From positions 1 to 11,405 of IMG/VR virus record IMGVR_UViG_648276668_000008: DNA of 11,405 nucleotides. One strand, written 5' to 3'. Under the pieces are notes generated by a model, which did no database searches, was not told where the DNA came from, and saw nothing but the letters and a program-made list of their open reading frames with translations. The position numbers were made by a program, and so were the translations under genes. The stretch is from a virus (lineage: Duplodnaviria; Heunggongvirae; Uroviricota; Caudoviricetes). Every line of letters starts with the position of its first letter. The stretch's first letter is position 1. Positions 1-11,405 of the stretch are shown here, piece after piece.

Positions 1-253
1 CACAAGACTCTTCTGCATTCGACGGCGGTTCTAGTCAGTAGTAGATGTTTAAGGCGTGGCAGAGACATTTCATCCTTACTCTACGGCATTGGTCCACATA
101 CAAATCGTGGTTGTGACACTTCACTTATCATCAGTGAGCGAACAGAGAATAGTTCAGTGATTTGAGTAATTAACCTGATTAAATGAAGAGGCATGATAAA
201 TGATAATACTCTGGCTTTATCGTTAATTACTTAATTCCACATGTAAGCAATTT

Positions 254-280
254 GCCCGCTTGGCATAGCGGGCATTTTTT
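254..280 (+). terminator. Rho-independent terminator-like hairpin in the left flank, outside the element
   Basis: Stem GCCCGCT (254-260), loop TGGCAT, stem AGCGGGC (267-273), then A + TTTTTT (274-280). Confidence 0.45.
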
Positions 281-466
281 CCAGGTACTTTTGAATGAGT
301 ACTGATGGATAAATACATTGCAGTGGCGTGCCACGTACCAAAACACCAGCCCTCATTCGAAACTACCTACCGCACTGCTTCTTTAAAATGGCGTTAGTCG
401 TGAAATATTGACCGCCATCGAGTCCCCCTTGTAACCTTAACTCTTCCTGATACGTGAATAATGATT

Positions 467-511
467 TGGTGGCCCTTGCTGGACTTGAACCAGCGACCAG
501 GCGATTATGAG
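467..511 (-). repeat. att direct repeat: ~45-nt fragment matching the 3' part of a tRNA (CAU-type anticodon loop through T-arm and CCA); not a complete tRNA
   Basis: Reverse complement reads ACTCATAATCGCCTGGTCGCTGGTTCAAGTCCAGCAAGGGCCACCA (anticodon loop CUCAUAA, T-arm GCTGG-TTCAAGT-CCAGC, acceptor 3' strand + CCA). Sequence 5' of it cannot form a D-arm or acceptor 5' strand. A second CCA-end copy starts at 11392. From memory it resembles the E. coli ileX/ileY-type tRNA 3' half. Confidence 0.7.
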
Positions 512-618
512 TTGGTTGATAACCCTTTACTTACAGATACTTAGCGATACTTTTCAATACCTTAGCATTTTTTAAAACTACTGTATAAATACCTGTATAT
601 ACCCCAAAATACTTCTTT

Positions 619-669
619 ACGGTATCCTATAGGTATCCTGGAACAGAACAAGCGATTTTCCAGGATACC
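619..669. promoter_or_regulatory. Candidate integrase arm-type binding sites: tandem GGTATCCT-ATA-GGTATCCT plus an inverted copy CCAGGATACC
   Basis: The 21-bp block ACGGTATCCTATAGGTATCCT (619-639) recurs exactly at 11324-11344 near the other end. GGTATCCTGG (632-641) has its inverted complement CCAGGATACC at 660-669, about 25 bp upstream of the int start. Confidence 0.5.
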
Positions 670-692
670 AGATCGCTTGGTGGGGTGTATGA

Positions 693-2126
693 GTGAAATT
701 ATTCAGATTCTCTAAAGTAAAAATTGCAGAACTGCCAACGCCGGAACATGGACAGGTCGAATATGGTGATACGGAGGTTAACGGGCTGCGTGTCCGTGTA
801 GGTTCGTCTGGTGTGAAAAGTTTCTGCATTTCCCGTAAGCGTAACGGAAAATTTATTCGTGCAACGCTGGGGCGTTTTCCTGATCTGAGCGTGGATAATG
901 CCAGGGCTAAAGCTATGGAACTCCTTGGCGAAGTCGCCACAACGGGGATAAATCCGAACATAGCAAAGCGCACTAACAACAAGGCCATGATAACGCTGAG
1001 TGAGGCGATTGACGCCTACGTAAAAAATCGTGGCCACCGCCTGAAACCCTCCACAGAAAAACAGTACCGCAGCATATTACAGAATTATTCCGGTGACTGG
1101 ATGGCCCATACCCTCGCCAGTATTTCCCGCGAACGGGTGGAACAACGGCATAAGGCCATCACTGATGGGGCTGTATGGTTCGGTGCTGATAAAACCACGT
1201 TACGGGCTGGGGTTGGTACAGGAAGCAAGGCACAGGCCGATTTATGGGCGCGTGCGCTGCGTGCCGTGTGTCGGTTTGCGCATGATCATTATCGTGATGA
1301 TGCGGGTAATACTCTTTTACCGGATCCGCCGACGCTGGTACTGAGCACTAAGCGCCAGTGGCACGGAACGGTAAGAAAAACGGAACGTATCCGCCTGCAT
1401 GATTTTTCGCGCTGGTTTGCTGCTGTAGCAGCTGTACGCGACCAGGGCGAACAGAAAAGGGATGATATAGCGGTGACGGTATGTGATGCCGTGGAAATGG
1501 CGCTTTTTACCGGACTGAGAAAATCAGAAATTTTTGGCCTTACGTGGGATCGCGTGAATATGGGCGGTCGTTTTTTCTGGATAGACACCACGAAAAACGG
1601 GGATCCGCTCGAATTGCCGATCACTGATACGTTGCGGGAGATGTTCCGCCGCCGGCTGAAAATAAAAAACGCTGATGATGTTCTGGTGTTTCCTGGTGTG
1701 AAGGGCGTTATTCAGGAGACACGGCACATCATAGACCGGATAAGCGCGGCTACCGTTTCAGAGTCGAACGATGAAATGCTCTCCCCTGTACCATTCAAAT
1801 GGCACGATGCGCGCCGGACGTTCGGAACGGTTGCCGAACTGGTGGGTGTGGGCAATTACATCCTCAAGCGCCTGATGAATCACCGTACTATGCGAAGTGC
1901 TGACGTAACGCAGGGGTATTTACATTTTGGTGCTGATGAACTGCTGGAGCCAGCGTCACGGATAGAACGGGCAATTCTGGAACATGCCGGGCTGGTGGAG
2001 AGTAAAAAATCTATTGATGCGCAATTGATGGCGGTCTTAAACAACCTAAGCGAAGAAGAAAAAAGGAAATTAATTTTTTCCTTATCTACAGATGAGTGTA
2101 ACCAGTTATGGCAGAAAGAAAAATAA
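693..2126 (+). CDS. int: Tyrosine recombinase, P4-type phage integrase
   Basis: 477-aa ORF from GTG 693 with GGTGGGG upstream. N-terminus GLRVRVGSSGVKSF...TLGRFPDLSV...GINPN fits the P4-integrase N-terminal pattern. Catalytic-domain motifs: LFTGLRKSE (box I Arg), WHDARRTF (HxxR), GYLH (Tyr). First gene inside the att repeat. Confidence 0.9.
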   Translation: MKLFRFSKVKIAELPTPEHGQVEYGDTEVNGLRVRVGSSGVKSFCISRKRNGKFIRATLGRFPDLSVDNARAKAMELLGEVATTGINPNIAKRTNNKAMITLSEAIDAYVKNRGHRLKPSTEKQYRSILQNYSGDWMAHTLASISRERVEQRHKAITDGAVWFGADKTTLRAGVGTGSKAQADLWARALRAVCRFAHDHYRDDAGNTLLPDPPTLVLSTKRQWHGTVRKTERIRLHDFSRWFAAVAAVRDQGEQKRDDIAVTVCDAVEMALFTGLRKSEIFGLTWDRVNMGGRFFWIDTTKNGDPLELPITDTLREMFRRRLKIKNADDVLVFPGVKGVIQETRHIIDRISAATVSESNDEMLSPVPFKWHDARRTFGTVAELVGVGNYILKRLMNHRTMRSADVTQGYLHFGADELLEPASRIERAILEHAGLVESKKSIDAQLMAVLNNLSEEEKRKLIFSLSTDECNQLWQKEK

Positions 2127-2845
2127 CAACCCCTGATTATATCATTCACCTTTTTATACGTGAGTTATTTACTTACGGTGATAAAGCCTCTGTTGTACGT
2201 ATAATTAAACGATGCTATGACGATAAAAATAACAAAGGGATAGACGGTTTTACAGAGCTTCTTACAAGTGTAGTTGCGTATTTTGCAAAATCAGCGAATG
2301 CTACAGAGGTTTTTCTTTATTTTATTGGCTTTACGACAGAAAATAAAAAGTTTAAACATCCAGAATTTTTTATCCATCAATTACAGCAAATGGATACTAG
2401 AAAAGAATCTTTTTTTCAGATTGAAAACTTGCCACCAGGCGCAATTAGTGCGTTAAATTCGGCAATCTCACTGTATGCAATAGGAATGAGAAATAATGCT
2501 GATAATCTTGTAAAACTTGGAATATACTTGTTAATTTCAGGGCTTTTTGAAGGTTATCATGTGGATTATGTTTGTGATGAAATATCAAAGCAAGCTATTG
2601 CTGAACATCAAAGAGAAAAAGCAAGCAAACCAAGAAATCATTATTACAATGAAGTTATGCACGTAATTAAATTAACGTGGGAAAAGTACCCTAAAGCCAG
2701 TAAAACAGGTTTATTGAACGAGCTTTCTGTTTACTATCATGGGAAAGTAAGTAAAAACACTCTGGATAAATGGATTAAAGAATCAGGAGCACAACCACCA
2801 AGACCTGATAAATATTCTTCGTTTGAACTTGTTCACCCCCAATAG
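2108..2845 (+). CDS. Hypothetical protein; AT-rich cargo gene with no recognisable family
   Basis: 245-aa ORF whose ATG at 2108 overlaps the int stop by 19 nt. Visibly lower GC than the flanking genes. Mostly hydrophilic, no motif I can name. Confidence 0.6.
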   Translation: MAERKITTPDYIIHLFIRELFTYGDKASVVRIIKRCYDDKNNKGIDGFTELLTSVVAYFAKSANATEVFLYFIGFTTENKKFKHPEFFIHQLQQMDTRKESFFQIENLPPGAISALNSAISLYAIGMRNNADNLVKLGIYLLISGLFEGYHVDYVCDEISKQAIAEHQREKASKPRNHYYNEVMHVIKLTWEKYPKASKTGLLNELSVYYHGKVSKNTLDKWIKESGAQPPRPDKYSSFELVHPQ

Positions 2846-2978
2846 CTGGCTAGTGTATCTTAATAGCTGGCTATTAAGGCTAAATAACTGGTAACCTCCC
2901 CACAGCAACTGGCTATTGGGCTAAAAACAAAATACCCATTGATTGATATTTATCACCGTTGTTACTTAGAAGTACACG

Positions 2979-3197
2979 GTGATAGATATGAATTTAAAGA
3001 AATCTGATTTATCAACTGACCGCCTTACACGTGCTGAAGCTGCTGCCTACCTTGGCGTTAACAATCAAACGCTGGCGAACTGGGCCTGTACTGGCAAGGT
3101 AAAAATCCCTTTCCATAAGCTGGGGCGCAAAGTGCTGTATATGCGCACTGATCTCGATGCTTATCTTGCATCCACTCGCAGAACGCAGACGGTGTAA
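2979..3197 (+). CDS. Excisionase/AlpA-type helix-turn-helix DNA-binding protein
   Basis: 72 aa. LTRAEAAAYLGVNNQTLANWACTGKVKIPFHKLGRKVLYMRTDLDAYL fits the excisionase-family HTH pattern. Start is GTG 2979 or ATG 2988. Confidence 0.8.
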   Translation: MIDMNLKKSDLSTDRLTRAEAAAYLGVNNQTLANWACTGKVKIPFHKLGRKVLYMRTDLDAYLASTRRTQTV

Positions 3198-3544
3198 GGG
3201 GGAGTGATGGCACATAAAACAAAGGCGACCGTAGAGGGCCGCCAGTGGCATAACACTAAACTTGAGCATATCCAGAATACCAGGTTGTTGGCTGGTGGGC
3301 AATGCTATCAGTCTGGCTCGATTCGCTGCCATGCCTGCAATGAGCGTATTTTCCTAGAATACTCTTTAAGGTACTTCTCAAGGATAAACGCACATGGTGC
3401 GAATCTCTCCGGTTCATGTTCGTTTACCGCATTTTTGCGTTGTTTTTTCTTGGATGAGGATAATTTCTTTAATGATTTGTCAGTCATCGTAGATACCTGT
3501 AACCCTGTGCGCCACAGTTCACCGCACCACGGCGCTGGTGATGG

Positions 3545-3724
3545 TTACTCCTGCTCTTTGGCCTTGCGACGCTGGCGGTATTCAACTTCTCGCTTTAATG
3601 CTGCTGTTACAAACTGCCCTGTACTTTCACCAGGCATTTTTACCGCCTCAACATTGTTCATAACTTCATGCGGAACCCTTGCCGCAACTGTTTGTGATTT
3701 TGCGTTTACTGCTTTTGTCGCCAT
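3545..3724 (-). CDS. Small ribbon-helix-helix (CopG/Arc-like) putative repressor, 59 aa; below the ORF-track cutoff
   Basis: Minus-strand ATG at 3724-3722 with AAGGGG 8 nt upstream; stop TAA at 3547-3545. Translation MATKAVNAKSQTVAARVPHEVMNNVEAVKMPGESTGQFVTAALKREVEYRQRRKAKEQE shows a strand / helix / G-x-S-T / helix pattern typical of RHH proteins. It abuts the palindromic operators. Confidence 0.6.
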   Translation of the reverse strand: MATKAVNAKSQTVAARVPHEVMNNVEAVKMPGESTGQFVTAALKREVEYRQRRKAKEQE

Positions 3725-3774
3725 GTTGTGTACCCCTTACAAAAAACAAATGCAGTATGCAGGAAAAAAAATAA

Positions 3775-3826
3775 GTGTTCAACACTTGACGTGTTTAACA
3801 CCTGGATTTAAATTGGTGTTCAACAC
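3775..3826. promoter_or_regulatory. Divergent promoter/operator region with three 11-bp palindromes GTGTT(C/T)AACAC
   Basis: Copies at 3775-3785, 3791-3801 and 3816-3826. A sigma70-like -35 TTGACG (3786-3791), 17-bp spacer and -10 TAAATT (3809-3814) read toward the Icd-like gene and are overlapped by the palindromes. Confidence 0.6.
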
Positions 3827-3923
3827 CTTGTTGATGCAAGGTGCAGAAACGACGAAACCCGGCAGTGCGCTAACACTAACCGGGCTTCTAACCACCAACG
3901 ATAGAAAGCGTATCGAGGTAGCT

Positions 3924-4127
3924 ATGAGAAATCATACCACACACCCGCAAGGGCGGGACTCGCACGACCTGAATAAATACATCTGGCGTTTTATCGCCCT
4001 GAGCACCGCACAACCGCGCGTGATTCACATCGTGGCCACCAGCGAACAGGAAGCACGCCAGCAATCCCCGGCTGGCTGCGTGATGGTATTCGCCGCCCGT
4101 ATTCGTCAGGGGGTGTGCCATGCCTGA
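3924..4127 (+). CDS. Icd-like small protein (P4-type host cell division inhibitor family)
   Basis: 67-aa ORF, ATG 3924 with GAGGTA upstream. KYIWRFIALSTAQPRVIHIVATSEQEARQQ...VMVFAARIRQG resembles Icd-like proteins of P4-type elements (from memory). It is the in-frame C-terminal end of the 307-aa track ORF 3204..4127, which I regard as spurious. Confidence 0.65.
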   Translation: MRNHTTHPQGRDSHDLNKYIWRFIALSTAQPRVIHIVATSEQEARQQSPAGCVMVFAARIRQGVCHA

Positions 4128-4440
4128 TATGTCAAATTACCAGTACCTGATTAATCCGCATTTTAACTGTGAGCATGATATTGCTAAAAAGGTTTATTCC
4201 GCTGCGGATGGGGCTACTGACAATATATCAATGGCTGTTGCGTCAATTGGTAGCCTGATGTGGCATGCGTCAGAAAATGAGGAATATGACGAAAAGGCCA
4301 TGCGCATTGATATGGGTAATATCGGTTTGTTACTGGCAATGCTTGGACATTTTGATATTTCGTTACGGTGCACCATTGAAAATGCCACAGATGCATTAAA
4401 TGCTATAAAGAAAGCGAATACTGATTCAAATCGGGGATAA
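4120..4440 (+). CDS. Hypothetical protein
   Basis: 106-aa ORF; AGGGGG upstream; start overlaps the Icd-like stop (ATGCCTGA). Acidic, no recognisable motif. Confidence 0.55.
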   Translation: MPDMSNYQYLINPHFNCEHDIAKKVYSAADGATDNISMAVASIGSLMWHASENEEYDEKAMRIDMGNIGLLLAMLGHFDISLRCTIENATDALNAIKKANTDSNRG

Positions 4441-4446
4441 ATAATC

Positions 4447-4746
4447 ATGAGAACGTATTTATCTGGCTTGACTGCCAGCGGTTATGCACACCCCCAAATT
4501 ATCCCCGGCGCTATTTATCTGGATAAGAACGGTAACAGAGTAACGGTAAAAGAACTGATGTTTGACCGTGTGTATTTTATTCGTGATGGCTATTCATTTC
4601 ATAGTTCGCTGAACGTGGAGATCTTTATTAGCAGATTCAGGCGGGAAATCCCGCTTTCCAGAAATAACCATGTGTCACGTGTGAATGTGGATAAAAAACT
4701 ACAGGAACTGAAAAACATGATTGCCGCGTGGAGAGAGCAGAAATGA
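4447..4746 (+). CDS. Hypothetical protein
   Basis: 99-aa ORF with GGGGAT upstream; its stop overlaps the primase ATG (ATGA at 4743-4746). Confidence 0.55.
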   Translation: MRTYLSGLTASGYAHPQIIPGAIYLDKNGNRVTVKELMFDRVYFIRDGYSFHSSLNVEIFISRFRREIPLSRNNHVSRVNVDKKLQELKNMIAAWREQK

Positions 4747-6560
4747 AAAAAGCGCCAAATTTAAAACACCAGCCACGTGACAAAATGACGGAAGTCATCA
4801 TTTTTGCGGGTAGTGATGCGTGGGCACATGCGAAGCAGTGGCAGGAACAGGACGGGCGACTGGCTGGCGATAACGTGCCTCCTGTCTGGCTTGGAGAGCA
4901 ACAACTTGCCGAACTGGACAACCTGCAAATCGTACCGGACGGACGCTATCGCGTGCGTCTCTATCAGGCGGGGTTATTGCGTCCGGGGCTTGTTAATACC
5001 ATCGGGCAGAAACTGGCAGCGGCAGGTGTCAGGGATGCTGATTATTACCCTGAAGGAATGCACAGCCAGAAACGGGAGAACTGGCGCGAATATCTGGAAC
5101 GTGAACGGGCAGAGCAGGCGGAAAAGAAAAAGGTAGTTGAACTGCCTGTAAAGAAAAAAGAGCGGGTAAAAGACGATAACGCTTCATCACTGGCGCTTAA
5201 CCAGATGGGAGCAAGTCAACGCGGCGAAGTTCTCCTGGCACATTATGGCGGTGAACTGGCGATTCATGCTGACTCTGACACTGTTCACCATTACAACGGC
5301 GTTGTATGGGAGCCAGTACAGGATAAAGAATTACAGCGAGCTATGGCACAGATTTTCATTGATGCGGAGATCAGCTATTCGCAGAACGCCATTAAATCGG
5401 CGGTCGATACCATGAAGTTAAGTTTGCCTGTAATGGGGAATACAGCCCGTAACCTGATTGGATTCAGTAACGGGGTATTTGATACCAGAACAGGTAATTT
5501 TCGGGGGCATAACAAAAACGACTGGTTGTTAATTGCCAGTGAATTACCTTTCAGCCCACCAGCAGAGGGGGAAACACTGGCAACACATGCGCCGAATTTC
5601 TGGAAGTGGTTACGCCGTTCGGTGGCTGAGAATGACCGCAAGGCAGATCGCGTACTGGCGGCATTATTCATGGTGCTGGCGAACCGGTACGACTGGCAGT
5701 TATTCATTGAGGTAACAGGGCCGGGGGGAAGTGGTAAAAGCGTGATGGCGGAGATTTGCACCATGCTGGCGGGTAAGGCTAATACAGTATCAGCAAGCAT
5801 GAAGGCGCTGGAAGATGCAAGGGAACGTGCGTTAGTGGTTGGCTTTTCGCTGATTATCATGCCGGATATGACCCGCTACGCTGGTGATGGGGCAGGGATT
5901 AAGGCCATTACAGGCGGTGACAAGGTGGCAATTGACCCGAAACACAAAGCCCCCTACTCAACGCGTATTCCGGCAGTAGTGCTGGCGGTTAACAATAACG
6001 CCATGTCATTCAGTGACCGCAGCGGGGGGATCTCACGTCGTCGGGTGATATTCAATTTTTCGGAAGTTGTACCGGAGAACGAACGCGATCCAATGCTGGC
6101 GGAAAAAATAGAAGGTGAGCTGGCGGTAGTGATTCGCCATCTGCTTACACGGTTTGCTGACCAGGACGAAGCCAGACGCCTGTTATATGAGCAGCAGAAA
6201 TCTGAAGAAGCACTGGCGATAAAGCGAGAGGGGGATTCGCTGGTGGACTTCTGCGGCTATCTCATGGCGTCGGTAATGTGTGATGGCCTGTTAGTGGGTA
6301 ATGCTGAAATTGTGCCATTCAGCCCACGCAGGTATCTCTATCATGCCTATCTGGCTTATATGAGGGCACATGGGTTTGGTAAACCTGTAACACTGACGCG
6401 CTTCGGTAAAGATATGCCGGGGGCAATGGCGGAATATGGCAGGGAGTATATGAAACGGAAAACGAAGCACGGTTTGCGTTCAAACGTGACACTGACGGAG
6501 GAATCAGAAGACTGGATGCCATCATGTGTATCGGTCACTAATGACGACAGCAAAAATTAA
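4743..6560 (+). CDS. P4-alpha-like primase / replication initiator (D5/SF3-type NTPase); the satellite pri-rep gene
   Basis: 605 aa from ATG 4743 (GGAGAG upstream, ATGA overlap with previous ORF); the frame is open from GTG 4728. Walker A VTGPGGSGKSV and a possible Walker B LIIMPD. Followed directly by the iteron origin. Confidence 0.8.
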   Translation: MKKAPNLKHQPRDKMTEVIIFAGSDAWAHAKQWQEQDGRLAGDNVPPVWLGEQQLAELDNLQIVPDGRYRVRLYQAGLLRPGLVNTIGQKLAAAGVRDADYYPEGMHSQKRENWREYLERERAEQAEKKKVVELPVKKKERVKDDNASSLALNQMGASQRGEVLLAHYGGELAIHADSDTVHHYNGVVWEPVQDKELQRAMAQIFIDAEISYSQNAIKSAVDTMKLSLPVMGNTARNLIGFSNGVFDTRTGNFRGHNKNDWLLIASELPFSPPAEGETLATHAPNFWKWLRRSVAENDRKADRVLAALFMVLANRYDWQLFIEVTGPGGSGKSVMAEICTMLAGKANTVSASMKALEDARERALVVGFSLIIMPDMTRYAGDGAGIKAITGGDKVAIDPKHKAPYSTRIPAVVLAVNNNAMSFSDRSGGISRRRVIFNFSEVVPENERDPMLAEKIEGELAVVIRHLLTRFADQDEARRLLYEQQKSEEALAIKREGDSLVDFCGYLMASVMCDGLLVGNAEIVPFSPRRYLYHAYLAYMRAHGFGKPVTLTRFGKDMPGAMAEYGREYMKRKTKHGLRSNVTLTEESEDWMPSCVSVTNDDSKN

Positions 6561-6572
6561 ACTTATGGAATA

Positions 6573-6797
6573 ACTGTTCACCACTGTTCACCCTGTCATA
6601 AATATCTTTTATATCAGTATATTATAGGGTGAACAGTTATTTATGAACTGTTCACCAAACTATTCACTGTTCACCTTTTTGATTGTTTATTGAGCTTCAA
6701 GGGTGAACAGTGGTGAACAGTTGGTGAATAGTTTTTGTGAAACTGTTCACCCCTTAACATTATGAATTAAAAGAGAAAATATCAAAAGGTGAACAGG
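6573..6797. repeat. Replication-origin-like iteron array: at least 9 copies of ACTGTTCACC in both orientations around an AT-rich spacer
   Basis: Forward copies start at 6573, 6583, 6647, 6666, 6742; reverse copies (GGTGAACAGT) at 6628, 6702, 6712, 6788; degenerate copies near 6658 and 6723. AT-rich stretch 6593-6627. Sits between the primase and the next gene. Confidence 0.8.
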
Positions 6798-6847
6798 TGA
6801 AGGGTTAAAACGCAAAAATTTTAATTTACTGCTGTGAGATAAAGCCT

Positions 6848-7093
6848 ATGACAGCGAAGCACACAAAAAAATCACAATCGCACGCCCTTGATTTGACGGA
6901 ACACTGGTTAAGGGTGTCGATAAAAATCATCGACCGCAACGCCGGGGAAGGATATGCGAAAGCACATCCCGAACTGATTAGCGCATTCATGACAACGGCA
7001 GCTGCAAACTTTGCCACGCTGACAGAACGGGAGATTGCCGAAGCGGAACAGGTGACAACCATCAACGTTAAAACTGGAGAGCAGACAGCATGA
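6848..7093 (+). CDS. Hypothetical protein
   Basis: 81-aa ORF; stop overlaps the start of the SSB-like gene (ATGA). Confidence 0.5.
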   Translation: MTAKHTKKSQSHALDLTEHWLRVSIKIIDRNAGEGYAKAHPELISAFMTTAAANFATLTEREIAEAEQVTTINVKTGEQTA

Positions 7094-7431
7094 CAGCACA
7101 GATAGCGGCTTACGGGCGGCTGGTGGCTGACCCGCAGTTAAAGACCACCAGCAAGGGTACACAAATGACGATGGCTAGTATGGCGGTCCCCCTTCCGTGC
7201 AGCCAGGCAGATGACGGAACGGCGACGATGTGGTTATCCGTCCTGGCGTTTGGCAGACAGGCCGACGCACTGGCAAAACACCACAAAGGCGAACTGGTGA
7301 GCGTGGCGGGTAACATGCAGGTAAGCCAGTGGACAGGCCAGAACGGCGAAACGCGGCAGGGCTGGCAGGTTATCGCAGACAGTGTAATCAGTGCCAGAAC
7401 GGCGCGACCGGGCGGCAAAAAAGGTCAATAG
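7090..7431 (+). CDS. Single-stranded DNA-binding protein-like (OB fold only, no acidic C-terminal tail)
   Basis: 113 aa. GRLVADPQLKTTSKG...WLSVLAFGRQAD...GELVSVAGNMQVSQWTGQNGETRQGWQVIADSV parallels E. coli SSB GNLGQDPEVRY...WHRVVLFGKLAE...[22 protein letters not shown] (from memory). Confidence 0.7.
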   Translation: MTAQIAAYGRLVADPQLKTTSKGTQMTMASMAVPLPCSQADDGTATMWLSVLAFGRQADALAKHHKGELVSVAGNMQVSQWTGQNGETRQGWQVIADSVISARTARPGGKKGQ

Positions 7432-7529
7432 GGCCAGGCTACTGACGCACTGAACAGGGCAAAACAACAGTCGGGGAATGATGATCCGTACGGCGATAAT
7501 ATACCGTTTTAAATTCTGCAAATAAAAAA

Positions 7530-7558
7530 ATGCCGGAAGAAAATAGATTTTCCGGCAT
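7530..7558 (-). terminator. Terminator-like hairpin with a U-run only on the minus-strand side
   Basis: 9-bp stem ATGCCGGAA (7530-7538) / TTCCGGCAT (7550-7558), 11-nt loop. On the minus strand it is followed by TTTTTTTATTT (complement of 7519-7529); on the plus strand no T-run follows. Confidence 0.4.
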
Positions 7559-7729
7559 GCTACATAAATCCCGACCAAAGGAAGTAAATACATTAACACG
7601 AATTATCAGCACTGAAGTTGTCACGGCAGATTTTATACAACATTGCACTTGGTTGCATGTATTCGCATAGCAAATATCGGTGATAGCATATATCCACAAT
7701 TATTTTTAATGAATGCAAAGAGGATGCGT

Positions 7730-8770
7730 ATGGTTGATTTATATTCGCCTGCCCAGCTTGTGCAGGTGGCTAATGCTGAAGATGTGCAAAAAAAATTAAA
7801 TGCGTTGTTTACCAGTTTGTTTTTCACTCGCTCGGTAATGTTTGAATCGAGAGACATTATTCTTGATACGATCGACGATCCAAATATCCCGATCGCGGCG
7901 TTTTGCTCTCCTATGGTGGGCAGTAAGGTTTCACGAGATGAGGGATACGAATCAAAAACAATTCGCCCTGGCTATATGAAACCGAAAAGCAGCATTGATC
8001 CAAATAAGTTAGCTGTGCGCCCTGCTGGTGTGTCACCTGAGCAATACAATGCTTTTGGGGCGCGTAATATTAAAGTTAAACAGGCGATTGTAAATCAGGC
8101 TAAAGCTATTCGTGCACGTATTGAATGGCTTGCTGTTCAGGCAATCACAACGGGGAAAAATATCATTGAGGGCGATGGTATTGAACGTTATGAGCTGGAC
8201 TGGAATATAAAACCACAAAATATTATCACGCAGTCTGGCGGTGCTGAGTGGTCAGGTAAGGATAAAGAAACTTTTGATCCAAATGATGATATTGAGAGCT
8301 ACGCAGAATTTAGTGAGGGCGTCACTAATATCATCATTATGGGCGGTAATGTATGGAAGAAATACCGTTCATTCAGAGCGATAAAAGAGGCTCTGGATAC
8401 CCGTCGTGGTTCTAATTCCGAACTGGAAACGGCCCTTAAAGACCTTGGTGATTCGGTGAGTTTTAAAGGGTATATGGGCGATGTTGCGATTGTTGTTTAC
8501 AGCGGACGTTATACCGACGAGGACGGAACTGAAAAACATTTCCTTGATCCTGATTTGATGGTGCTTGGCAATACGGCTCTTCAGGGGATTGTCGCCTATG
8601 GCGGTATTCAGGATCCGGAGCTAATCCGAATGGGGCTGACTAAAGCCGAACTTGCACCGAAAAACTATATTGTGCCTGGTGATCCGGCTATTGAGTACGT
8701 ACAAACGCACTCTGCACCACAGCCAATACCGGCCCGCATCAATCGTTTTGTTACCGTTCGCATTGGCTAA
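7730..8770 (+). CDS. Major capsid protein, lambda gpE-like
   Basis: 346 aa from ATG 7730 (AAGAGG 6 nt upstream; frame open from 7643). Blocks ITQSGGAEWSGKDKETFDPNDDIESYA and LDTRRGSNSELETALKDLGDSVSFKGYMGDVAIVVYSGRY parallel lambda gpE (ITQSGGTEWSKRDKSTYDPTDDIEAYA; LDTRRGSNSELETAVKDLGKAVSYKGMYGDVAIVVYSGQY). Length is similar to gpE. Confidence 0.9.
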   Translation: MVDLYSPAQLVQVANAEDVQKKLNALFTSLFFTRSVMFESRDIILDTIDDPNIPIAAFCSPMVGSKVSRDEGYESKTIRPGYMKPKSSIDPNKLAVRPAGVSPEQYNAFGARNIKVKQAIVNQAKAIRARIEWLAVQAITTGKNIIEGDGIERYELDWNIKPQNIITQSGGAEWSGKDKETFDPNDDIESYAEFSEGVTNIIIMGGNVWKKYRSFRAIKEALDTRRGSNSELETALKDLGDSVSFKGYMGDVAIVVYSGRYTDEDGTEKHFLDPDLMVLGNTALQGIVAYGGIQDPELIRMGLTKAELAPKNYIVPGDPAIEYVQTHSAPQPIPARINRFVTVRIG

Positions 8771-8779
8771 GGGGGAGCA

Positions 8780-9121
8780 ATGGCTACTCATTACACTGAA
8801 CTCATGTCTGGCACTGAAGCACTGGTTACTACGCTGGGGATATTTTCAGCCAATAAAGGGATAATACCTGCGTTTACGCCACTGATGCAGGAAGATGCAA
8901 CTGGTGCGCTAGTGGTATGGGATGGAACGAGCGCAGGCAAAGCGGTTTATGTTTCCGCTGTACAAATCGACACAGCGAAAAAAACACAGGCACAGGTTTA
9001 TAAGACAGGTGTTTTAAATGTTGATGCTCTGAACTGGCCTGAGTCTGTAAAAGAACTGTCGGCAAAGGTTGCCGCGTTTGTTGGCTCAGGTATTTCTGTT
9101 CAGCCGCTGGCTCGTGTGTAA
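8780..9121 (+). CDS. Head decoration protein, lambda gpD-like
   Basis: 113 aa, AAGGGGGAG upstream. TPLMQEDATGALVVWDGTSAGKAV...YKTGVLNVDALNWPE...AAFVGSGISVQ parallels lambda gpD ([24 protein letters not shown]...YKSG...LWPE...AFAGTAISIV). Immediately follows the gpE-like gene. Confidence 0.85.
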   Translation: MATHYTELMSGTEALVTTLGIFSANKGIIPAFTPLMQEDATGALVVWDGTSAGKAVYVSAVQIDTAKKTQAQVYKTGVLNVDALNWPESVKELSAKVAAFVGSGISVQPLARV

Positions 9122-9132
9122 AGGGGGATACA

Positions 9133-9516
9133 ATGCAGAATCATTACAATGACCTTAAGCCAATTGCCGAAATGATGTATCCGGATCCAGCAGTAGAGGA
9201 ATTAAAGGCTATTGCTGACAAAATGCGTTTAAGTGAACGCCTTGTTGATATGAATCAGGTGATGGAAATTACTACCCTTAGCCGTCGCACATTGCTAAAC
9301 CTTGAGGCTCGCGGAGAGTTCCCCGAACGCGTACAGGTTACGGAAGGGCGTAAGGCCTGGTATTTAAGCGAAGTGATCGACTGGATAAACAATATTCCTC
9401 GCGCTTCTGAATATTGCCGCGTACCTGTCCCAAAAAAGCCAGATGCGGCGCTATGCCTCAAGATTGAGCGTGTACGCCGCAATGCACGGGATGGTCGCTA
9501 TAAGTTGATTGGTTGA
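9133..9516 (+). CDS. AlpA-family transcriptional regulator (HTH) with an N-terminal extension
   Basis: 127 aa, AAGGGGGA upstream. VDMNQVMEITTLSRRTLLNLEARGEFPERVQVTEGRKAWYLSEVIDWI fits the AlpA-type HTH pattern. Confidence 0.8.
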   Translation: MQNHYNDLKPIAEMMYPDPAVEELKAIADKMRLSERLVDMNQVMEITTLSRRTLLNLEARGEFPERVQVTEGRKAWYLSEVIDWINNIPRASEYCRVPVPKKPDAALCLKIERVRRNARDGRYKLIG

Positions 9517-9572
9517 TGAAATTAGGGCCCGTTCTGGCTGGCGGGTCCTTTCCGGCGATCCGGTAGGCTACG

Positions 9573-9614
9573 GGGCGGCGACCTCGCGGGTTTTCGCTAT
9601 TTATGAGCATTTTC
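9573..9614. other. cos site: lambda-type cosN (12-nt cohesive end GGGCGGCGACCT) with adjacent conserved sequence
   Basis: 9573-9606 matches the left end of phage lambda as I recall it for 34 of 34 nt (GGGCGGCGACCTCGCGGGTTTTCGCTATTTATGA), and 40 of 42 through 9614, then diverges. It lies ~120 bp upstream of the Nu1-like gene, the same arrangement as lambda cos-Nu1. Confidence 0.8.
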
Positions 9615-9732
9615 AGGGGGCTGGTGGTGGTTTTGTTGTTCGCTCTATCTCTATGAATAAGAAGAGAAAAATACAATCAATACACCAACCTGAAACAGTA
9701 ATTAAGTTGTGGTATCAATGAAATTGCACCTG

Positions 9733-10260
9733 ATGAACAAAAAAAACATGGCAAAAAGTTGCCGTGTAAGCGCCACTGCGTTTGATAAGTGGGGAGTGAT
9801 TCCCGTCGAGCGTAAGGGCCGTGAGGCATTCTATGATGTTGCCAGTGTAATAGATAATCGGGTTAACAATGCAATTAGCCAGATTACAAACGAAACGGGC
9901 GATATTGATGACGATGAACTTTTACGCGTCAGGATCAGATTACTGACAGCACAGGCAGAGGCGCAGGAGCTTAAAAACGAGCGCGAACGCGGCGACGTTA
10001 TTGATACAGAGTTTTGTATGTATGTTCTTTCCAAACTGGCGAGTCAGATTTCATCTATCATGGACAGCCTGCCGCTTACCATGCAAAGGCGCTTCCCACA
10101 GATGACTCCGGCTATGCTGGATGGACTTAAAAAGGAAGTGGCTAAAGCCTGTAATGCCAGTGCCGGAGTTGACGACAACCTCCCGCAGATACTGGCTGAT
10201 TACCTGATGGAAACTACCGGAAATGTGCCGGATAAGTTGCAGCCGAATAAAGACAAGTAA
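9733..10260 (+). CDS. Terminase small subunit, lambda Nu1-like
   Basis: 175 aa from ATG 9733 (frame open from GTG 9709). RLLTAQAEAQELKNERERGDVIDTEFCMYVLSKLASQISSIMDSLPLTMQRRFPQ parallels lambda Nu1 RLTRAQADAQELKNARDSAEVVETAFCTFVLSRIAGEIASILDGLPLSVQRRFPE. The N-terminal region (NKKNMAKSCRVSATAFDKW) also aligns with the Nu1 N-terminus. Confidence 0.85.
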   Translation: MNKKNMAKSCRVSATAFDKWGVIPVERKGREAFYDVASVIDNRVNNAISQITNETGDIDDDELLRVRIRLLTAQAEAQELKNERERGDVIDTEFCMYVLSKLASQISSIMDSLPLTMQRRFPQMTPAMLDGLKKEVAKACNASAGVDDNLPQILADYLMETTGNVPDKLQPNKDK

Positions 10261-10271
10261 CGTAGCGCACT

Positions 10272-10556
10272 ATGACAGAATCTGAATTGCTGGGATTAAT
10301 CCGCCGCGTTACCGGAATCAAACAACCATCAAGCAAACAGGAGGCCACGCAGCCGGACAGCGTGATAGCCGAAAATTACGCGCGTGTGGTGGCTGAGATG
10401 ATGCGCCGTGACGGTATCGAGCTTAACGGCGTGGATATGCGCGACATACGGATCAGAGTCCTTGAGTTGCTGGCATACCGTCGCCGTTCTCAACAACGGA
10501 GGGAGAGCGCGAAAAATACTTACCAGTGGAGGAAGCCGGAACGGTTGCGGCGGTAG
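10272..10556 (+). CDS. Hypothetical basic protein downstream of the small terminase gene; possible packaging accessory
   Basis: 94-aa ORF with an Arg-rich C-terminus and weak RBS. Sits where a large terminase would be expected, but is far too small to be one. Confidence 0.5.
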   Translation: MTESELLGLIRRVTGIKQPSSKQEATQPDSVIAENYARVVAEMMRRDGIELNGVDMRDIRIRVLELLAYRRRSQQRRESAKNTYQWRKPERLRR

Positions 10557-11345
10557 ATTCCTGATATTCAGGAAAACCACGAATCTGTGGGGTTTACTGG
10601 CGCGGTTACGGCGGTGACACGCACCGAGGCAGAACAATTACCGTAGGTTAAAGCGACAGTATTCACACCAAAGGCAGAAATTAGCGGTTAACGTAACTGA
10701 CTGATATTTTCGGGAACAGCCAACGGCTGAGGCCGGAGCTATAAAAATAGCTTTGGGTACAGTCCTCAGTTTTGAGGGATGTTAACCAACTGAATAATAA
10801 GCAAAGCTCAAAATTGAGTTTTGTATCTGCCTGAGTTATTTCTGTGCTAACTTGCTGATATTCCCGATAACGCAAAATTGCGTTGGCTGGTGGGTGAGTT
10901 GCAGATCTGCAACTCGACCATGAAATTACGGAAACTACCCGTAGTTTGGGTAGTAAGAGCAACACCCAGATTTTGGGGCTTACTCGCGATACCCAAATAC
11001 AGGGGATCGGTGGAAGAAATATCGTTTCTCATATGTGAGTACCGAGGGCGGAATTCCGCCTTCGGTTACTTATTGTGCTCATGCACAGGGAGGGGCGGGT
11101 CAAATCTCTGTACCCTGACGTCTTCCGGACTGCCAGCCCCATCGATTTTTTATACCCGCGAAAAATGAAAAACGCTTCACGCTGGTGGGTCTGATGCCGA
11201 TATGGGGATCCACATAACGGATTATCCGTGATCATCGACCAGCTATCATGTCGGATAGTTAAAGTTTCATGACAGGTATGATGTTGCGTAACTTGTTGTT
11301 TTTATACCTGCTTATACTCTGTCACGGTATCCTATAGGTATCCTA

Positions 11346-11383
11346 GAAAAAACGAAGGGGTCACGCTGTTAACGTAACCCCTT
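11346..11383 (-). terminator. Rho-independent terminator for the minus-strand tRNA
   Basis: Minus-strand hairpin AAGGGGT-(15 nt)-ACCCCTT (11355-11383) followed by CGTTTTTTCT; begins 8 nt downstream of the tRNA CCA end. Confidence 0.65.
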
Positions 11384-11391
11384 GATAGATA

Positions 11392-11405
11392 TGGTGGCCC
11401 CTGTT
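11392..11405 (-). tRNA. 3' end of a tRNA gene, truncated by the window edge; integration target
   Basis: Reverse complement of 11392-11405 is AACAGGGGCCACCA, which differs at two positions from the CCA end of the 467-511 repeat (AGCAAGGGCCACCA). A terminator follows on the minus strand. Confidence 0.5.

Follow-up and report, generated by a model that had tools for sequence, protein, structure and literature searches.

We analysed an 11,405-nucleotide (nt) stretch of DNA, positions 1 to 11,405 of the virus record IMGVR_UViG_648276668_000008 (Caudoviricetes), which is referred to here as the window and belongs with the integrative phage satellites of the kind formed by Gram-negative phage-inducible chromosomal islands (PICIs) and P4-like elements. 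The work concerns two small minus-strand open reading frames, ORF1 and ORF2, that lie between an AlpA-like gene and the divergent, rightward operon formed by an Icd/Kil-like gene (icd), DUF4222 and a primase gene. A first-pass annotation, made from the letters of the DNA, had described both as unlisted ORFs of 59 amino acids (aa), the first with a strong ribosome-binding site and a ribbon-helix-helix (RHH)-like pattern and the second with a weak site 58 nt downstream, and had suggested that together they could form a short leftward operon of the immunity type. Both were found in the ORF listing with exactly the coordinates and translations that had been given, and the leftward unit is made up of the following features.

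3545–3724, minus strand: ORF1, a ylcI-type gene of 59 aa, predicted to encode an RHH DNA-binding protein and a candidate repressor of the rightward operon.
3733–3738, minus strand: the Shine-Dalgarno sequence AAGGGG of ylcI, 8 nt ahead of the ATG; relatives have GGAG, AGGAG or AAGGAG there.
3488–3544, minus strand: the spacer of 57 nt between ylcI and ORF2, invariant in length in 70 homologues and containing a GC-rich inverted repeat and the AGG of ORF2.
3496–3498, minus strand: the AGG that serves as ribosome site of ORF2, 8 nt before its ATG.
3308–3487, minus strand: ORF2, 59 aa, a small basic protein whose N-terminal tail is rich in Lys and Arg and which is predicted to form one long helix.
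3214–3243, minus strand: an intrinsic terminator with the stem GGCGGCC/GGTCGCC (3243 to 3224) followed by UUUGUUUUAU (−14.2 kcal/mol, z −2.5).

The contrast between a strong and a weak ribosome site is thus real (AAGGGG versus AGG), the gap between the two ORFs has to be corrected to 57 nt, and both ORFs are in the same reading frame. The word unlisted applies to the ORF track of the first-pass annotation and not to the public record, in which ORF1 is present in RefSeq as YlcI/YnfO and ORF2 is treated inconsistently, being left unannotated, called as a minus-strand hypothetical protein or hidden under a plus-strand pseudogene call.

ORF1 is 100% identical to the RefSeq protein WP_000201462.1, named YlcI/YnfO, which is present in a 99.7%-identical genome and in many others, and given this existing annotation it is not new as a gene. 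It reaches 59.7 bits against the NCBIfam profile YlcI_YnfO_N (NF041551; cut-off 30, E 2e-16) over profile positions 1–42 of 42, matches phrog_949, and shares the size of the family and its motif MATK..N.KS..R.PH...GES..QF. Residues M1-A2-T3, N7, S10, R16, H19, G32-E33-S34, Q37-F38, E46 and R50 are invariant in 39 aligned Enterobacterales relatives. The AlphaFold model of ORF1 (predicted local distance difference test, pLDDT, 84) has an extended stretch at residues 12–18 and then two helices, which is the RHH topology of beta-strand, helix A, turn and helix B, and it matches the RHH repressors AmrZ, Arc, omega and CopG. RHH proteins carry a G-x-S/T/N turn between their helices, and here this is the G32-E33-S34 that all 39 aligned members share, within a conserved beta-strand framework. 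A sequence search of the PDB with ORF1 was empty and a Foldseek search against the PDB returned nothing significant. The predicted fold and the invariant G-E-S turn bear out the RHH-like character that had been read from the sequence, and the assignment of ORF1 as a ribbon-helix-helix protein is supported at the level of a predicted fold. In E. coli O157:H7 a different ORF of 57 aa occupies the ylcI position (locus L004, 2750–2923, minus strand), with weak similarity to Arc and to YlcI_N; it represents a further RHH type, unannotated in that record, and a homologue of ORF2 follows it.

The intergenic region of 199 nt between ORF1 and icd contains three palindromes of 11 base pairs, GTGTTYAACAC, at 3775, 3791 and 3816. 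The pattern occurs nowhere else in the window, and with one mismatch allowed there are 6 matches on both strands against 0.36 expected by chance. These copies are arranged over a pair of divergent promoters, a rightward (PR) and a leftward one (PL), as follows.

3775–3785: operator O1, GTGTTCAACAC, abutting the −35 element of the rightward promoter and holding the putative leftward −35 element (TTGAAC, 3777–3782).
3791–3801: operator O2, GTGTTTAACAC, within the PR spacer between −35 and −10, about +66 from the ylcI ATG, a position conserved across genera.
3816–3826: operator O3, GTGTTCAACAC, just after −10 and over the expected PR transcription start, at about +88 to +92 in the same numbering, a position likewise conserved across genera.
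3786–3814, plus strand: PR-like site TTGACG-17 nt-TAAATT, which would serve the icd-DUF4222-primase operon (9/12 in the consensus scan).
3754–3782, minus strand: candidate PL, read from the sequence, with −35 TTGAAC (3777–3782), a 17-nt spacer and −10 CATACT (3754–3759).

At the place of the PR −35 element TTGAC or TTGAA is kept in relatives. The candidate PL has 8/12 consensus matches, which is below the scan threshold, and relatives have TATACT at its −10 position, followed by an operator-like copy.

Our comparison covered 36 loci of the ylcI type in other species together with about 95 from Escherichia. Among those 36, at least 17 have the gene in divergent orientation to an icd and/or primase homologue, and every type carries two to four copies of GTG-N5-CAC in its intergenic region at the same positions from the ylcI ATG, namely at about +21 or +50, at about +66 (just after −35) and at about +88 to +92 (after −10). 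This layout is identical in Pectobacterium, Kosakonia, Edwardsiella, Leclercia, Xenorhabdus and a record titled Enterobacter pulveris. The N5 core differs by type and tracks residues 11–15 of ORF1, which belong to the predicted DNA-reading beta-strand and exist in about 27 variants across several genera. The pairs of beta-strand and operator include the following.

T[VIL]AARVP with GTGTTYAACAC, in E. coli, Edwardsiella, Pectobacterium and Kosakonia.
KLEARVP with GTGGCTGACAC, in E. coli and Pectobacterium.
RFDVRVP or RIDARVP with GTGTCSGACAC, in Leclercia, Pectobacterium and E. coli.
K[LI]QARAP with GTGGAGTCCAC or CTGGAATCCAG, in E. coli, Xenorhabdus and the record titled Enterobacter pulveris.
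LTTVRVP with GTGTGTTTCA.
SVTARIA with GTGTAAGACA.

Within any one intergenic region all copies change together, as a repressor-operator pair would predict, and residues 11–15 of the beta-strand most likely set operator specificity, which would give rise to many heteroimmune types.

Given these observations, we contend that ORF1 is most likely a heteroimmune, operator-binding repressor and the first gene of a leftward two-gene unit in the immunity region of the satellite, a reading drawn from sequence comparison and one that we consider probable. A YlcI-type RHH dimer, or a higher oligomer, would insert its beta-ribbon into the three GTGTTYAACAC operators, and with the operators bound the icd-primase operon for replication would stay silent while the island is quiescent; the protein would probably also regulate its own promoter, the putative −35 element of which is within O1. 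The proposal of a dimer whose beta-ribbon reads the operator has indirect support in the two to four GTG-N5-CAC repeats at conserved promoter positions and in the covariation of their core with residues 11–15.

With regard to the second gene, no convincing terminator was found between ylcI and ORF2, and the one at 3243 to 3214 is the sole convincing terminator on the minus strand, its stem being kept by compensatory changes in relatives (GGCGACC..GGTCGCC and GGCCACC..GGTGGCC). Since this covarying terminator comes after ORF2, a transcript of about 520 nt that covers ylcI and ORF2 is the simplest reading, and a short leftward two-gene operon appears plausible. ORF2 would then be co-transcribed with ylcI on a transcript that ends at the terminator (3243 to 3224) and be translated from its own weak AGG-N8-ATG site. 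A read-through fusion of the two genes, which share a frame, was considered and rejected on account of an in-frame TAG in the spacer of some relatives. The spacer hairpin was rejected as a structure as well, its sequence being conserved but with no compensatory pair change (z −0.98).

The two genes do not form an obligate, tightly coupled pair. ORF2 is absent 3' of ylcI in about 30 loci of other genera, and in E. coli it is located behind several unrelated RHH types, including the distant Arc-like one in O157:H7. Homology between islands begins within the last ten codons of the RHH gene present there, whatever its type (...RRQRRKAKEQE and stop) and continues through ORF2. The immunity-type operon of the first-pass annotation thus stands for its RHH gene, which is divergent from icd and primase, has three repeats over the promoter that covary with the protein, and is followed on the same strand by ORF2 and then a terminator; it does not extend to a role of ORF2, as nothing ties this gene to immunity, it is confined to Escherichia, it is missing beside ylcI elsewhere and its RHH partners are unrelated. 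The sequence AAAGAGCAGGAGTAACCAYCACCAGC (...KEQE and stop; window positions about 3560–3530) ends many different RHH genes, and ORF2 variants of 65 aa also end in ...KEQE and stop (L053–L064, L119–L126). To judge by this recurrence, the KEQE-stop sequence appears to mark a boundary between modules or a point of repeated recombination.

A word-indexed search for ORF2 gave 29 protein clusters, all from Escherichia, with 64–100% identity and lengths of 58–68 aa. When 1.8 billion representatives were searched exhaustively with a profile, only about 10 ORF2 proteins came up, two of them frameshifted forms (P0127, P0128), and a scan of genome contigs for ORF2 gave no match. Residues 1–53 match phrog_21027 (E 5e-30), a family listed under 'unknown function', and there is no match in Pfam, NCBIfam or PADLOC, toxin and defence families included; a PDB sequence search was likewise empty. 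The AlphaFold2 model consists of one long helix at residues 30–56 (pLDDT about 91).

At the DNA level, we compared 70 distinct homologues of ORF2. The ATG is present in 70/70 and the ORF is intact in 69/70, with lengths of 57–66 aa. Insertions and deletions within the ORF are of 3 or 6 nt only, all in frame, and the AGG is found at the fixed distance of 8 nt from the ATG in all 70 homologues, though the intervening 8 nt vary. The C-terminus has three different ends, each with its own stop, and the N-terminal tail remains basic although its sequence varies. Median dN/dS (NG86) is 0.27, and the median ratio of nonsynonymous to synonymous differences (pN/pS) is about 0.35–0.43, the lowest of six frames, the four control frames lying at 0.8–1.25. 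Invariant residues use several synonymous codons, and switches between the Arg codons AGA and CGA and between the Leu codons CTT, TTA and CTA are silent solely in the frame of ORF2. Judged by this comparison, ORF2 is a genuine conserved gene under purifying selection, found in Escherichia only, and our best guess is that its product binds nucleic acid or acts as an accessory regulator, and that it is made in the repressed state. A hairpin inside ORF2 (CGCAC-CAT-GTGCG, 3401 to 3389) had been flagged as terminator-like, and the variants APCAF, TPCVF and VPCTF seemed compensatory; it was rejected because synonymous Ala and Pro codon changes break the stem while FAPC is invariant, which indicates constraint on the protein and not on the RNA.

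Two further features of the region had escaped the first-pass annotation, namely the antisense nesting of both genes in a long plus-strand frame that is fused to icd, and a likely antisense small RNA (sRNA) over the icd start.

3204–4127, plus strand: eta-like open frame of 307 codons, antisense through ORF2, ylcI and the operators and ending as icd.
3845–3939, minus strand: candidate cis-antisense sRNA, running from about 3923 to about 3845 opposite the Shine-Dalgarno sequence and start codon of icd, with an extended −10 element TGGTATGAT at 3931–3939.

The eta-like frame starts directly after the stop of the alpA-like gene (TAA GGGGGAG GTG ATG, 3195–3209), and in relatives the same junction is also seen after two different types of alpA-like gene. 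Its wobble positions coincide with those of both minus-strand genes, ORF2 and ylcI. The eta-like frame matches NF033153 at residues 259–302, icd also has a separate GAGG-ATG start at 3924, and the N-terminal 255 residues match no family, the Icd-like end alone giving a match. In 67/85 distinct relatives the frame is in phase with icd and stop-free over the 400–700 nt from ORF2 to icd, the other plus frames having about 11 stops each. It is open across the intergenic region in 17/21 sequence types (P 0.001–0.07 per type from shuffles) and, opposite ORF2, in all 42 sequences compared. This frame explains why an ORF track would hide both minus-strand genes, why some genomes carry 'Icd-like pseudogenes' over ORF2 in the output of the Prokaryotic Genome Annotation Pipeline (PGAP), and why one satellite record has a protein of 324 aa annotated and the antisense RHH gene omitted. 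Plus-strand PGAP pseudogenes labelled 'Icd-like' or 'hypothetical' lie over ORF2 at L004 2307–2900, L005 2544–2823, L135 1069–1525 and L002 2788–3325, and a 134-aa form of Icd overlaps the start of ylcI at L134 1709–2113.

A comparable nesting has been described for P4, in which kil is the end of a longer ORF, eta, that begins upstream of an internal promoter; eta is translationally coupled to an alpA homologue, and its translation prevents termination so that late transcription reads through (PMC10111431). In the P4 sequence the eta/kil ORF (8168–8812) starts at the end of ORF88/vis and ends in the same Icd-like domain, which is matched at residues 146–193 of the frame 8168–8767; no antisense RHH gene is present inside it. 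The window shows both of these P4 traits, a long ORF that ends in an Icd/Kil-like domain and a start immediately after an alpA/vis homologue. By analogy with P4, translation of the eta-like frame may be coupled to the alpA-like gene, and that the frame has been kept free of stops to an extent well above chance fits what would be expected if its translation prevents termination, which in the P4 scheme is Rho-dependent. The frame would then be translated from alpA-coupled read-through, and induced transcription would cross into icd and primase.

The candidate sRNA gives a full-length but sub-threshold match to the Rfam family symR (RF01809), with 32.8 bits against a gathering threshold of 61 (E 0.0044); the candidate is SymR-like in architecture and, by the Rfam criterion, not a member of the family. 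The icd-start region folds at −36.5 kcal/mol (z −5.8) on the minus strand versus −20.5 (z −2.0) on the plus strand, and the consensus fold of 13 diverse relatives reaches −34.8 kcal/mol on the minus strand, with 26 pairs, 50 G-U cells and 12 covarying pairs, versus −10.8 on the plus strand. The conserved structure of the icd leader belongs to the minus strand, opposite icd. An extended −10 element (TGGTATGAT or TGGTATAAT) is conserved inside icd codons 3–5, 6–8 nt upstream of the 5' end of the RNA. Of a sense-encoded CI/C4-type immunity RNA as in P4, with seqA/seqC targets in the leader, no sign was found, as C4 and isrK gave no Rfam match at E ≤ 1 in the window. Read on the plus strand, at 3851–3890, the first leader hairpin has 5 pairs in which both sides have changed in a compensatory way between relatives, and in a second one, CGATA-N7-TATCG, the GGT of the icd Shine-Dalgarno region is paired with ACC; the leader hairpins at 3851–3890 fit a minus-strand RNA better.

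A wider proposal can be built from these elements, which we regard as possible but put forward tentatively. According to it, a subset of Gram-negative PICI and P4-like satellites would possess a compact, doubly coded immunity switch that consists of an RHH master repressor of many specificities and an ORF2 partner, both antisense in an eta-like frame, and of a SymR-like RNA that would in addition block icd/kil translation. The eta-like frame would have to remain translatable for AlpA-coupled read-through transcription to pass over the repressor genes and operators and reach the replication operon.

Other readings of the locus differ in what they make of the second gene. It is very improbable that the pair is a type II toxin-antitoxin (TA) system with the RHH protein as antitoxin and autorepressor and ORF2 as a small toxin. 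ORF2 has neither a match to a toxin or defence family (Pfam, NCBIfam, PADLOC) nor a RelE fold, its model being a single long helix; the gap of 57 nt leaves no overlap or translational coupling with ylcI; ylcI is without ORF2 in all non-Escherichia loci examined and ORF2 follows unrelated RHH types; and the repeats lie on the divergent replication promoter and not only on the pair's own. A partner that is untied to ylcI and bears no toxin signature argues against such a pair. That ORF2 is no protein gene at all, and that its openness and codon-like conservation only reflect constraint on the eta-like frame of the plus strand or a conserved 3' untranslated region of ylcI, we consider unlikely, though this reading has several observations on its side. 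The plus-strand frame that shares the wobble positions of ORF2 is itself stop-free in 42 sequences with a pN/pS of 0.45–0.55, which limits what dN/dS can say on ORF2 as the two constraints are not cleanly separable; codon positions 1 and 2 of ORF2 vary equally, the flanking non-coding sequence is about as conserved, and PGAP omits ORF2 in the closest genome. The shadow would have to account, however, for the lowest pN/pS being that of the ORF2 frame, for an ATG and an AGG distance that are fixed in 70/70 over a variable spacer, for lengths of 57–66 aa with three C-terminal ends, for Arg and Leu codon switches that are synonymous in this frame alone and for a basic tail that is maintained, and the N-terminal 255 residues of the plus-strand frame for their part match no family.

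As to ORF1, the protein might bind DNA and yet not repress the replication operon, acting instead in self-regulation only or on packaging or late functions, as its relatives in lambdoid prophages may do. The YlcI/YnfO family is uncharacterised, icd seems to be under a separate control at the RNA level, and the K-12 namesakes presumably occupy a different gene context, all of which would suit this alternative, as would the report that Gram-negative PICIs are under the activator AlpA (PMC6092414). We nevertheless hold it to be quite unlikely, since the part of the rightward promoter where a repressor would be expected to bind, its spacer and start region, is taken up by two of the three repeats in all types and genera examined, and the divergent arrangement of ylcI and icd/primase recurs widely. 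It is extremely improbable, finally, that only the 307-aa plus-strand ORF is real and that both minus-strand ORFs are chance antisense frames. The plus-strand frame is indeed conserved as open, and some pipelines annotate one protein or pseudogene there; ylcI, however, is a curated family across Enterobacterales with a confident RHH model, covarying operators and a strong Shine-Dalgarno sequence, and the plus-strand frame is without a domain outside its Icd-like end.

Several points weigh against ORF1 as the satellite repressor and ORF2 as its co-transcribed neighbour, and they have to be set beside the evidence given above. The YlcI/YnfO family is without a characterised member, and its K-12 namesakes ylcI and ynfO presumably lie in lambdoid prophages adjoining terminase genes and not a replication operon. 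Physical linkage of operator and protein means that part of their covariation is shared descent, and it inflates the correlations. The leftward promoter is a weak candidate with 8/12 consensus matches. For ORF2, there are the frameshifted versions in the database (P0127, P0128), the frequent failure of PGAP to call it, the stop-free antisense frame with its pN/pS of 0.45–0.55, and the equal variability of codon positions 1 and 2, which does not separate ORF2 from that frame. What computation shows are the ORFs, the family membership, the predicted fold, the repeats and their covariation, the purifying selection, the terminator and the open plus-strand frame; DNA binding, repression, co-transcription, translation of ORF2 and the read-through mechanism are inferred.

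The wider setting of the repressor candidate is that of a complete island, with the following gene content.

Left part of the window: tyrosine integrase, a hypothetical protein and an HTH_17/excisionase-like (AlpA-like) gene at 2979–3197.
3924–4127, plus strand: Icd/Kil-like gene (67 aa), which opens the rightward operon; NCBIfam NF033153, E 5e-20.
Middle part, from the Icd-like gene (3924–4127) onwards: a hypothetical protein, DUF4222, a D5-type primase and a single-stranded DNA-binding protein (SSB).
Remaining part: a lambda E-type capsid protein, a D-type decoration protein, a second AlpA-like gene and a Nu1-like small terminase.

Mageeney et al. (PMC10111431) have described this organisation for Gram-negative phage-inducible chromosomal islands that encode a capsid protein of their own, and in the scheme of these authors the site of ylcI and ORF2 falls in the 'dynamic/Bro zone', with the integration zone on one side and the replication zone on the other. 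In E. coli KC-Dl-1, the 99.7%-identical genome, the island is inserted after nfeF, adjoining a tRNA-Ile gene. Related regions were found in 1510/5426 complete E. coli genomes, at up to six places per genome. Just 3' of the primase gene, at 6645–6734, inverted clusters of repeats of the TGTTCAC/GTGAACA type surround an AT-rich stretch; they first surfaced as a spurious microRNA match in the Rfam scan and are possibly the replication origin of the island.

Both genes are already in public databases, and what is new is the proposal of the YlcI family as heteroimmune satellite repressors and the antisense nesting in an eta-like frame. It has been regarded as unclear whether Gram-negative PICIs have a global repressor, and their control has been attributed to the activator AlpA (PMC6092414); the term ribbon-helix-helix was absent from the PICI and satellite literature that we searched, and no function or fold was assigned to any member of the YlcI/YnfO family in the literature searched. 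If the proposal is correct, YlcI-type RHH proteins would be the 'missing' repressor of Gram-negative PICIs, and a first function would be given to a widespread 'y-gene' family. Heteroimmunity between satellites in the same cell, with islands of different immunity types sharing one host, is suggested by the many specificity types and by the finding of as many as six related regions in a single E. coli genome. There is also a lesson for annotation, as pipelines pick either the long plus-strand frame or the short minus-strand genes, with inconsistent calls and spurious 'Icd-like pseudogenes' as the result.

In comparison with known systems, ORF1 resembles the YlcI/YnfO family of the K-12 prophage genes ylcI and ynfO in profile score, size and motif, and it differs in its setting: it is transcribed divergently to the replication operon of a satellite, the operators match the protein, and a concrete role is thereby suggested. 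With the Arc/MetJ class of RHH repressors (P22 Arc, Mnt, CopG, omega, AmrZ) it has in common the predicted beta-alpha-alpha fold, the G-x-S turn and a size of 50–60 aa, and these repressors, like ORF1, go with short operators, repeated or palindromic, that extend over elements of a promoter. A small antisense RNA is found in the immI region of P22, as apparently here. The regulators Stl, of the Staphylococcus aureus pathogenicity islands (SaPIs), and Rpr, of Gram-positive PICIs, are larger than RHH proteins and of the helix-turn-helix type, so that their protein class is unrelated to that of the island. The arrangement is nonetheless shared, since in these islands, too, a regulator divergent from the excision and replication operon silences the island (PMC6092414). 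The closest architectural parallel in the comparison is P4 (PLL, vis, eta/kil, PLE, CI RNA), in which, as in the island, a long ORF right after an alpA/vis homologue spans an internal promoter, ends in an Icd/Kil-like domain and is followed by genes leading to the primase. P4 has a sense-encoded CI RNA and no repressor gene antisense in eta, whereas the island has an antisense RHH gene, ORF2, operators and a candidate antisense sRNA.

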